Part shown: in pieces, positions 18,001 to 18,769 of the stretch | How the letters are laid out: each line of letters starts with the position of its first letter | How positions within the stretch are numbered: position 1 is the first letter of the stretch | IMG/VR virus record: IMGVR_UViG_2541047426_000010 | Location: 1-18,769 of that record | Reading direction: 5' to 3' (one strand) | From: a virus | Lineage: Duplodnaviria > Heunggongvirae > Uroviricota > Caudoviricetes | Length of the DNA stretch: 18,769 bases | Made by a program: the position numbers

Positions 18001-18769
18001 AAAGTGCAGCCGCTGCAAAGCAGTCAGAGGAGGCGTCCTCGTCCTCGGCCTCTGCGGCCGCTCAAAAAGCCAGTGAGTCATTACAAAGTGCAACAGATGC
18101 TGAGTTGTCAAAAAAGACGGCAGAAAGTGCAGCCGGTAATGCAGCCAGGGATGCAACGACCGCAGCAGAAAAAGCCCGGGAGTCAGCAGAAAGCGCACAG
18201 TCAGCGGAACAAAGCAGGATAGCGGCGGAAGAGGCCGTAAACCGAATCCCCACCGTGGTGGGGCCTCCCGGGCCAAAGGGGGAACCGGGGCCCGCGGGTC
18301 CTCAGGGGCCGAAGGGAGATAAAGGAGAGCGTGGAGACACCGGCCCGGCAGGGGCAACCGGCGAACGGGGACCGGCAGGTGATGCTGGTCCGGCAGGCCC
18401 GCAGGGGCCGAAAGGTGACAGGGGAGAGACCGGTCTGACGGGAAATGCAGGTCCACAGGGTCCAAAGGGAGACACCGGGGCAGCAGGCCCGGCAGGCCCA
18501 CAGGGACCGAAAGGAGAAACAGGTGCGGCTGGCCCGGTGGGGGCAACCGGACCTCAGGGACCGAAGGGCGACCCGGGGGAGACACAAATCCGTTTTCGTC
18601 TGGGGCCGGCGAGCATTATTGAGACAAACAGCCATGGCTGGTTCCCGGGTACAGATGGTGCGCTCATCACCGGACTGACCTTTCTTGCCCCCAAAGATAC
18701 CACACGGGTTCAGGGTTTTTTTCAGCATTTGCAGGTCAGGTTTGGTGACGGGCCGTGGCAGGATGTTAA

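Follow-up and report, generated by a model that had tools for sequence, protein, structure and literature searches.

A 36-triplet collagen-like tract in a lambda-like prophage: very probably the Col domain of an EPclA-type side tail fibre of Escherichia coli O157:H7

Introduction

Close to the end of the stretch of viral DNA analysed here (18,769 nt, positions 1 to 18,769 of IMG/VR record IMGVR_UViG_2541047426_000010; called the window in the following), a reading frame with a lambda Stf-like beginning passes into a long run of Gly-X-Y triplets. This raises the question which kind of tail protein carries such a run, and whether it is new. The novelty that the original prediction implied is absent. 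Proteins of this kind were described and biochemically characterised in 2012 as EPclA, the EHEC prophage collagen-like protein A (Ghosh et al. 2012, PMC3368898), and the feature is thus already known. As to its identity, we are highly confident that the tract is the Col domain of an EPclA-type side tail fibre, encoded by a lambda-like prophage of E. coli O157:H7.

Results

The collagen tract and its gene

The EPclA-type side tail fibre gene (17511..18769, plus strand) begins with an ATG at 17511 and is open to the window end; its 419 codons are intact throughout in translation, and the Pfam families PF08400, PF01391 and PF06820 are matched in this order. The 99.9%-identical copy of EC4115 encodes 434 aa, which places 419 of 434 codons inside the window and 15 codons plus the stop beyond its end. 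RefSeq (PGAP) names the gene only 'prophage tail fiber N-terminal domain-containing protein', and an exact look-up of the 434-aa protein in a collection of 15 billion proteins did not find it. A terminator-like hairpin with a T-run, a candidate from a consensus scan only, lies between lom and the fibre gene (17463..17499, plus strand) and ends 12 nt before the fibre ATG. A second terminator-like GC hairpin with a T-run, likewise a mere consensus match, follows J at 16711–16737. Transcription past both putative terminators would presumably depend on antitermination in the late operon.

Col, the collagen triple-helix domain, covers aa 251–358 (18261..18584, plus strand). A perfect run of about 35 triplets had been predicted between 18261 and 18582. 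The run is indeed without interruption and its start is exact; the count is 36 triplets and the predicted end falls 2 nt short of the true one at 18584. The search for a collagen triple-helix domain that had been proposed as a check returned Pfam Collagen, PF01391, with 64.1 bits against a cut-off of 27.2 (E 9.8e-18). The X position is taken by Pro in 50%, Asp/Glu in 33% and Ala in 11% of the triplets, the Y position by Lys/Arg in 28%, Ala in 25%, Thr in 22%, Gln in 14% and Pro in 8%. GPK, GPA and GPQ are the commonest triplets, and the charged motifs KG[DE] and RG[DE] occur seven times and twice, respectively. When the residues of the same protein were shuffled 2,000 times, the longest Gly-X-Y run had a mean of 2.7 and a maximum of 6 triplets. 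Chance as the origin of the 36-triplet run is therefore excluded, since the shuffled proteins never surpass 6. The next longest run in all six frames of the whole window has 4 triplets.

The GC content of the tract is 71.4%, compared to 56.1% for the window. From position 17400 to its end (1,370 nt) the window is 99.9% identical in the listed complete O157:H7 chromosomes, among them EC4115 and TW14359, and the sole mismatch to the EC4115-type copies is a synonymous third-position G/A difference at 18233. Because the tract recurs at this identity in the listed closed genomes, its sequence is evidently not an artefact of assembly.

Domain order around the tract

In the fibre protein, phage_tail_N (PF08400) is followed by Collagen (PF01391) and Phage_fiber_C (PF06820). 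PfN, the N-terminal tail-attachment or 'collar' domain, takes up aa 1–133 (17511..17909, plus strand), which match profile positions 1–133 of the 134 in PF08400 with E 1.1e-68. In a search of solved structures, residues 1–93 matched the Ur-lambda Stf collar domain (PDB 9E7M/9MGH, E 1.9e-50). Behind this domain the predicted Ala/Ser/Glu-rich region is present at aa 134–250 (17910..18260, plus strand). This segment, PCoil, is assigned as a trimeric coiled-coil stalk from its composition, its periodicity and its alignment with the coiled-coil region of lambda Stf. It comprises 117 aa with 63% Ala+Ser+Glu and eight Leu, Ile or Val residues, and its Ala residues recur with a periodicity of 3.5 (power 398, against a 95th percentile of 181 in shuffles).

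Beyond the tract lies PfC, the putative C-terminal trimerisation and nucleation knob (aa 360–419; 18588..18769, plus strand; PF06820 E 1.4e-35). The match covers profile positions 1–60 of 64, where the window stops; the EC4115 copy has the complete domain. The best PHROG matches of the fibre protein are all tail fibre families. The PfC region had no sequence match among the solved structures, where matches of the whole protein were to collagens, BclA and the lambda Stf collar only. An AlphaFold2 model of the PfC fragment (aa 355–419), computed for a monomer of an obligate trimer from a shallow alignment of 32 rows at >=88% identity, reached a mean pLDDT of 53 and a pTM of 0.41 and was set aside as unusable.

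Relation to lambda Stf

The resemblance of the N-terminus to lambda Stf, part of the original prediction, holds well: besides the PF08400 match at E 1e-68, 258 aa of the protein align at 59% identity with lambda orf-401, the Stf N-terminus, and the two are near-identical in the first ~110 residues. The gene order J–lom–fibre, with the tip attachment protein J and an Ail/Lom outer-membrane protein encoded upstream, is that of lambda J–lom–stf. It had also been supposed that lambda Stf itself has no collagen-like tract, and rightly so, as no Gly-X-Y run of at least 4 triplets is present in orf-401, orf-314 or the six frames of the stf region. The fibre protein has no significant similarity to lambda orf-314, and neither PF03406 nor another distal-domain family was matched in Pfam at E <= 0.01. 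Since it is without the Pf2 repeats and the distal gp37-like part, the window protein is, judged by its domain content, not a lambda Stf orthologue past the N-terminal domain and coiled coil.

Assignment to the EPclA family

The succession PfN–PCoil–Col–PfC is the EPclA architecture, which was defined in prophages of O157:H7 Sakai and EDL933; examples are ECs2717 (Sp14), ECs1808 (Sp9) and Z6027 (CP-933P) (Ghosh et al. 2012, PMC3368898). We found each of the EPclA features in the window protein: PF08400, the PCoil, a single Col and PF06820 directly after Col. As in EPclA, the Col is uninterrupted, the PCoil has about 116–117 aa (116 aa in the published copies) and the gene stands after J and lom in a lambdoid O157 prophage. 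The tabulated copies have either 437 aa with a 111-aa Col of 37 triplets or 407 aa with an 81-aa Col of 27 triplets (PMC3368898). Unlike these copies of Sakai and EDL933, the window allele has 36 triplets and 434 aa.

The composition of the tract agrees with the family as well. For the EPclP family the published averages are 48.1% Pro, 35.6% Asp/Glu and 10.3% Ala in X, and 31.0% Lys/Arg, 21.2% Ala, 20.2% Thr, 14.5% Gln and 7.4% Pro in Y (PMC3368898, Table 4), and the percentages in the window tract are within a few points of this table. GPK, GPA and GPQ are likewise the commonest triplets there (PMC3368898). In the sequenced hybrid phage lambda h434 imm21 a gene of this type carries the annotation stf, and many genomes of Stx-converting phages have one at the tail-fibre position.

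By CD, AUC, SEC-MALLS and EM, recombinant EPclA was characterised as a trimer which dissociates when denatured; its particles are dumbbell-shaped with a hinged stalk, its collagen CD signature melts at 42 °C, and the coiled coil shows an independent transition near 50–52 °C (PMC3368898). The 116-aa PCoil is a trimeric helix according to CD and SEC-MALLS, PfC and PCoil are both trimerisation modules, and PfC re-nucleates the collagen helix, with fast refolding of the triple helix (PMC3368898). By analogy to recombinant EPclA, the window protein is likely to be a trimer with a collagen triple helix, too.

Variation of triplet number

A comparison of triplet copy number among relatives had been suggested, and the number does vary, in whole 9-nt units at short in-register repeats. 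Over all the copies covered here the range is 4 to 38 triplets. Among the best 120 cluster representatives from a protein search, those with the same PfN and PfC have 4, 5, 8, 14–16, 18–21, 25, 26, 32, 34, 36 or 37. In others of these 120 the tract is joined to a C-terminal Peptidase_S74 domain (EPclD type). At the DNA level, five full-length copies were aligned with the window; they have 27, 36, 37 or 38 triplets, and all their indels are multiples of 9 nt. In phage genomes the region is mostly 9 nt longer than in the window (37 triplets), sometimes 18 nt longer (38) or 81 nt shorter (27).

DNA alignments locate the one-triplet (GER) length difference at 18421..18429 (plus strand). Here the window has a single copy left of the 9-nt unit GGGGAGAG followed by A or C, and the alleles with 37 and 38 triplets have this GER unit as a tandem duplicate. 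In Stx2_499 the CGGCAGGCC units number three instead of two, and in WGPS6 a 90-nt deletion lies between CCGGCAGGCC direct repeats. The orthologous locus of an nleA prophage in O157 strain 155, with the order lom–fibre–PfC ORF–DUF1076–nleA, has 37 triplets with an extra GGGGAGAGC; this one 9-nt unit and the synonymous base at 18233 are the only differences between the locus and the window in 1,410 nt. The alignments thus identify the window allele as a variant, one triplet shorter, of the common 37-triplet form. Because the indel junctions sit at short in-register repeats, we infer that the length changes by slipped-strand mispairing or unequal recombination between them.

The DNA had been described as highly repetitive and GC-rich. 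The second part is right; in repeats the tract is poor, with a longest exact repeat of 11 nt. Tandem Repeats Finder reported nothing in it other than a 45-nt unit in 2.0 copies at 80% match and a 9-nt unit in 2.2 copies, and a gapless repeat search gave a 33-nt family of 76–79% identity. The 19 repeated 9-mers all recur at multiples of 9, that is, in register with the triplets. The expected hazard for assembly exists, yet mainly from the gene's paralogues, up to 15–16 per genome, rather than from repeats inside the tract. Of 5,426 complete E. coli genomes, 718 contain tract and PfC together; the positive ones have a median of 10 copies and a maximum of 15, and a search with the N-terminal region included gives up to 16 matching places per genome.

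Several homologues (P0111–P0113, P0118, P0119, P0009 and P0010) are frameshifted in or just after the tract, and their tails are translations of its +1 or +2 frame. This points either to frequent frame loss in this fibre gene family or to common sequencing errors in the GC-rich run.

The open reading frame downstream of the fibre gene

The remainder of stf and any tfa chaperone gene had been expected beyond the window. A remainder exists and amounts to the 15 codons; in place of tfa there is an ORF with a PfC domain. In EC4115 it begins 1 nt past the fibre stop (L001 7418–7687) and encodes 89 aa, whose sole Pfam match is a second complete Phage_fiber_C domain (PF06820, E 4.7e-36) with 34% identity over 62 aa to the fibre's own PfC. 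The pair of fibre gene and 89-aa ORF is present in every copy fetched (EC4115, and at the same position in L003–L007 and L009). By its domain content, the 89-aa protein is not a Tfa-type assembly protein. Depositors' labels for it differ, ranging from 'hypothetical protein' and 'tail fiber protein' to 'tail fiber assembly chaperone' and 'alternate tail fiber tip'. In PMC3368898 a term search found no mention of this ORF, and a literature search on PF06820 and the 89-aa PfC ORF found nothing functional. In EC4115 it is followed by a DUF1076 pseudogene and then by the effector genes nleA, nleH1-2 and nleF.

Two proteins of 494 aa, P0009 and P0010, were considered as natural fusions of fibre and PfC ORF and rejected, as a frameshift inside PfC runs into the next ORF. 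From their sequences these two are mutational, with no evidence of programmed read-through. A side observation concerns lambda h434 imm21 (OM418627; L006 2412–6679), which encodes a 437-aa collagen-type Stf and the 89-aa PfC ORF and, behind them, has fragments with annotations as effector genes of the NleB, NleC and NleH type. This sequenced hybrid derived from lambda thus bears a collagen-type fibre together with effector remnants.

Discussion

Is the fibre gene in use?

The window is a mosaic, and the collection has no single record that matches it over all 18.8 kb. Positions 1–15015 are ~98.6% identical to the prophage next to btsS in FDAARGOS_293, whose ISEc8 insertion in nu1 is absent from the window (junction 970–977), whereas positions 15013–18769 are 99.92% identical to the EC4115 nleA prophage. 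The major capsid gene E is cut to ~88 codons (6840–7106; PF03864 positions 1–80 of 329) and abuts a tail tube (V) gene without the profile start (7166–7828); FI, FII, Z and U are absent from the window prophage. The FDAARGOS_293 relative (L007) has this junction too, with the annotation of an incomplete capsid gene. Across V, G and T, an antisense ORF of 444 aa with an ATG start (7169–8503, minus strand) has no Pfam match and is probably spurious. Gene J (13867–16692) encodes ~941 aa and is without ~617 nt (~206 aa) of the FDAARGOS_293 gpJ, in frame; a further in-frame deletion of 30 nt, flanked by GTG repeats, has removed the segment QHVPEKEAIV, which is present in EC4115 and FDAARGOS_293. 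The deletion junctions lie near 14779 and at 15013–15015.

With this gene content the prophage is evidently unable to build its own head or virion, and the fibre may matter only via complementation by, or recombination with, co-resident prophages. It is conceivable, if rather unlikely, that the fibre gene is an inert relic of a morphogenetically defective prophage which persists because decay has not yet reached it. The truncated E and V, the missing head genes and the shortened J speak for this, and so do the frameshifted or truncated copies in the gene family (e.g. P0009, P0111–P0119). However, the fibre ORF has remained intact through all 419 codons and differs from the alleles of other strains by one synonymous base and one in-frame triplet only. 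Furthermore, defects in head formation did not keep the Sakai prophages Sp9 and Sp15 from being packaged into DNase-resistant particles, as co-resident prophages apparently complemented them (PMC2669165). Whether the gene is a relic bears on its present use and not on what the tract is.

Virion part or surface protein?

A different view would take the product for a bacterial collagen-like surface adhesin or virulence factor of the Scl/Lcl type, made by the lysogen and not part of a virion. The NCBIfam models for Scl2/SclB, Lcl and SclA do match the tract with E values of 3e-23 to 1e-17, and the gene is found among virulence cargo, with lom upstream and, in the EC4115 copy, nleA and nleH downstream. 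These matches reach only 64–82 bits against cut-offs of 325–500, though, and are confined to the Gly-X-Y region. By inspection, no signal peptide or LPXTG motif was seen in the sequence; the N-terminus is the tail-binding collar domain of lambda Stf, the top PHROG matches are all tail fibre families, and the published expression evidence is tied to phage induction (PMC3368898). We consider a surface adhesin very improbable.

A third view, in which the Gly-X-Y run arises from GC-rich sequence, from a gene on the other strand or from faulty assembly, is hardly credible at all and stands refuted: antisense ORFs at 17734–18585 (283 aa) and 18201–18728 (175 aa) overlap the tract and one reverse frame of it is stop-free, but runs of GGN-CCN codons are inherently stop-poor on the reverse strand, the plus frame holds three ordered Pfam domains (E 1e-17 to 1e-68), the allele indels are all multiples of 9 nt in this frame and the region recurs at 99.9% identity in the listed complete chromosomes. 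The antisense ORFs over the tract were set aside as expected by-products of such codons.

How the fibre may work

For the EPclA-type fibre, which remains the preferred assignment, a mechanism can be proposed. It takes up the observed domain order, family membership, lack of a tract in lambda Stf and length polymorphism with its junctions, and joins them to properties established for close family members (trimer, collagen melting at 42 °C, trimerisation by PfC and PCoil, dumbbell shape; PMC3368898) and to the collar attachment established for lambda Stf (PMC12617516). Three chains would join via the C-terminal PfC, which trimerises and would nucleate a right-handed triple helix, with the 36 Gly-X-Y triplets zipping up in turn. 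At 0.286–0.288 nm per residue, the Col rod should be ~31 nm long. Without hydroxyproline, this helix would be stabilised by Pro in X and by charge pairs of the Lys/Arg-Gly-Asp/Glu type. The N-terminal collar domains of ~94 residues may dock the trimer at the junction of tail tube and tail tip in the manner of lambda Stf, that is, with 12 copies in four fibres. Such docking is suggested for the window protein because its residues 1–93 match the Ur-lambda collar domain. The collagen segment would then act as a stiff and thermostable spacer, holding the PfC knob off the tail so that it can touch the cell surface first. It is by inference that PfC is taken here for the receptor-binding end and collagen for the spacer, and a receptor-binding role of PfC is put as unproven in PMC3368898 as well. 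The length of the tract would shift in whole 9-nt units, by slippage or recombination at the short in-register repeats.

Two further ideas are speculative, and we regard them as doubtful. One is that the length of the tract is a selected and mutable setting of fibre reach; if so, length would diversify adsorption and host range among the ~10 co-resident fibre genes, similar to a contingency locus. The other is that the 89-aa protein is a structural partner of the fibre, in which case it might cap the fibre, serve as an alternative tip or template the trimerisation of PfC.

By itself the result matters little, as it is the correct recognition of a published family, EPclA. Its practical value lies in annotation and assembly, where near-identical paralogues are a hazard for short-read assembly of O157 prophages. 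The target of PfC, the effect of length on adsorption and the role of the PfC-only protein bear on the exchange of tail modules by defective O157 prophages and on their spreading of effector and Shiga-toxin genes.

Comparison with known systems

Lambda Stf, split into orf-401 and orf-314 in lambda PaPa and intact in Ur-lambda, shares with the window protein the collar domain, the Ala/Ser-rich stalk and the position after lom. In Ur-lambda, 12 copies of the collar domain ring the gpV/gpM junction and are joined in threes, via flexible linkers, to four trimeric coiled-coil fibres; distally these continue with a hinge, a gp37-like coiled coil and a receptor-binding domain with OmpC as its target (PMC12617516). 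The window protein has a collagen rod and PfC in place of the hinge, the gp37-like distal domain and the OmpC-binding tip. Furthermore, lambda stf is followed by the tail-fibre-assembly gene orf-194, whereas the window-type fibre gene has no tfa after it.

Among the collagen-like phage proteins, EPclB (Z1483, ECs1228), the tail fibre or 'tail spike' of short-tailed Stx phages such as 933W and Sp5, has PfN, PCoil, Col and PfC modules, too. Its second Col–PfC segment is homologous, and query positions 176–670 match many Stx2a phages at ~91% identity. EPclD-type fibres of Shigella and E. coli have the same PfN–PCoil–Col front half, with up to 94% identity, and end in a Peptidase_S74 domain (PF13884, endosialidase chaperone) where the window protein has PfC.

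Bacterial counterparts are Scl1 and Scl2 of Streptococcus and BclA of Bacillus anthracis, the latter matched here as PDB 1WCK. These likewise form hydroxyproline-free helices which are stabilised by charge pairs, variable in repeat number and nucleated by a globular trimerisation domain, as in the window type (PMC3368898). Unlike the window protein, they belong to cell surfaces or spores, carry signals for secretion or anchoring and have a Y position rich in Thr and Gln.
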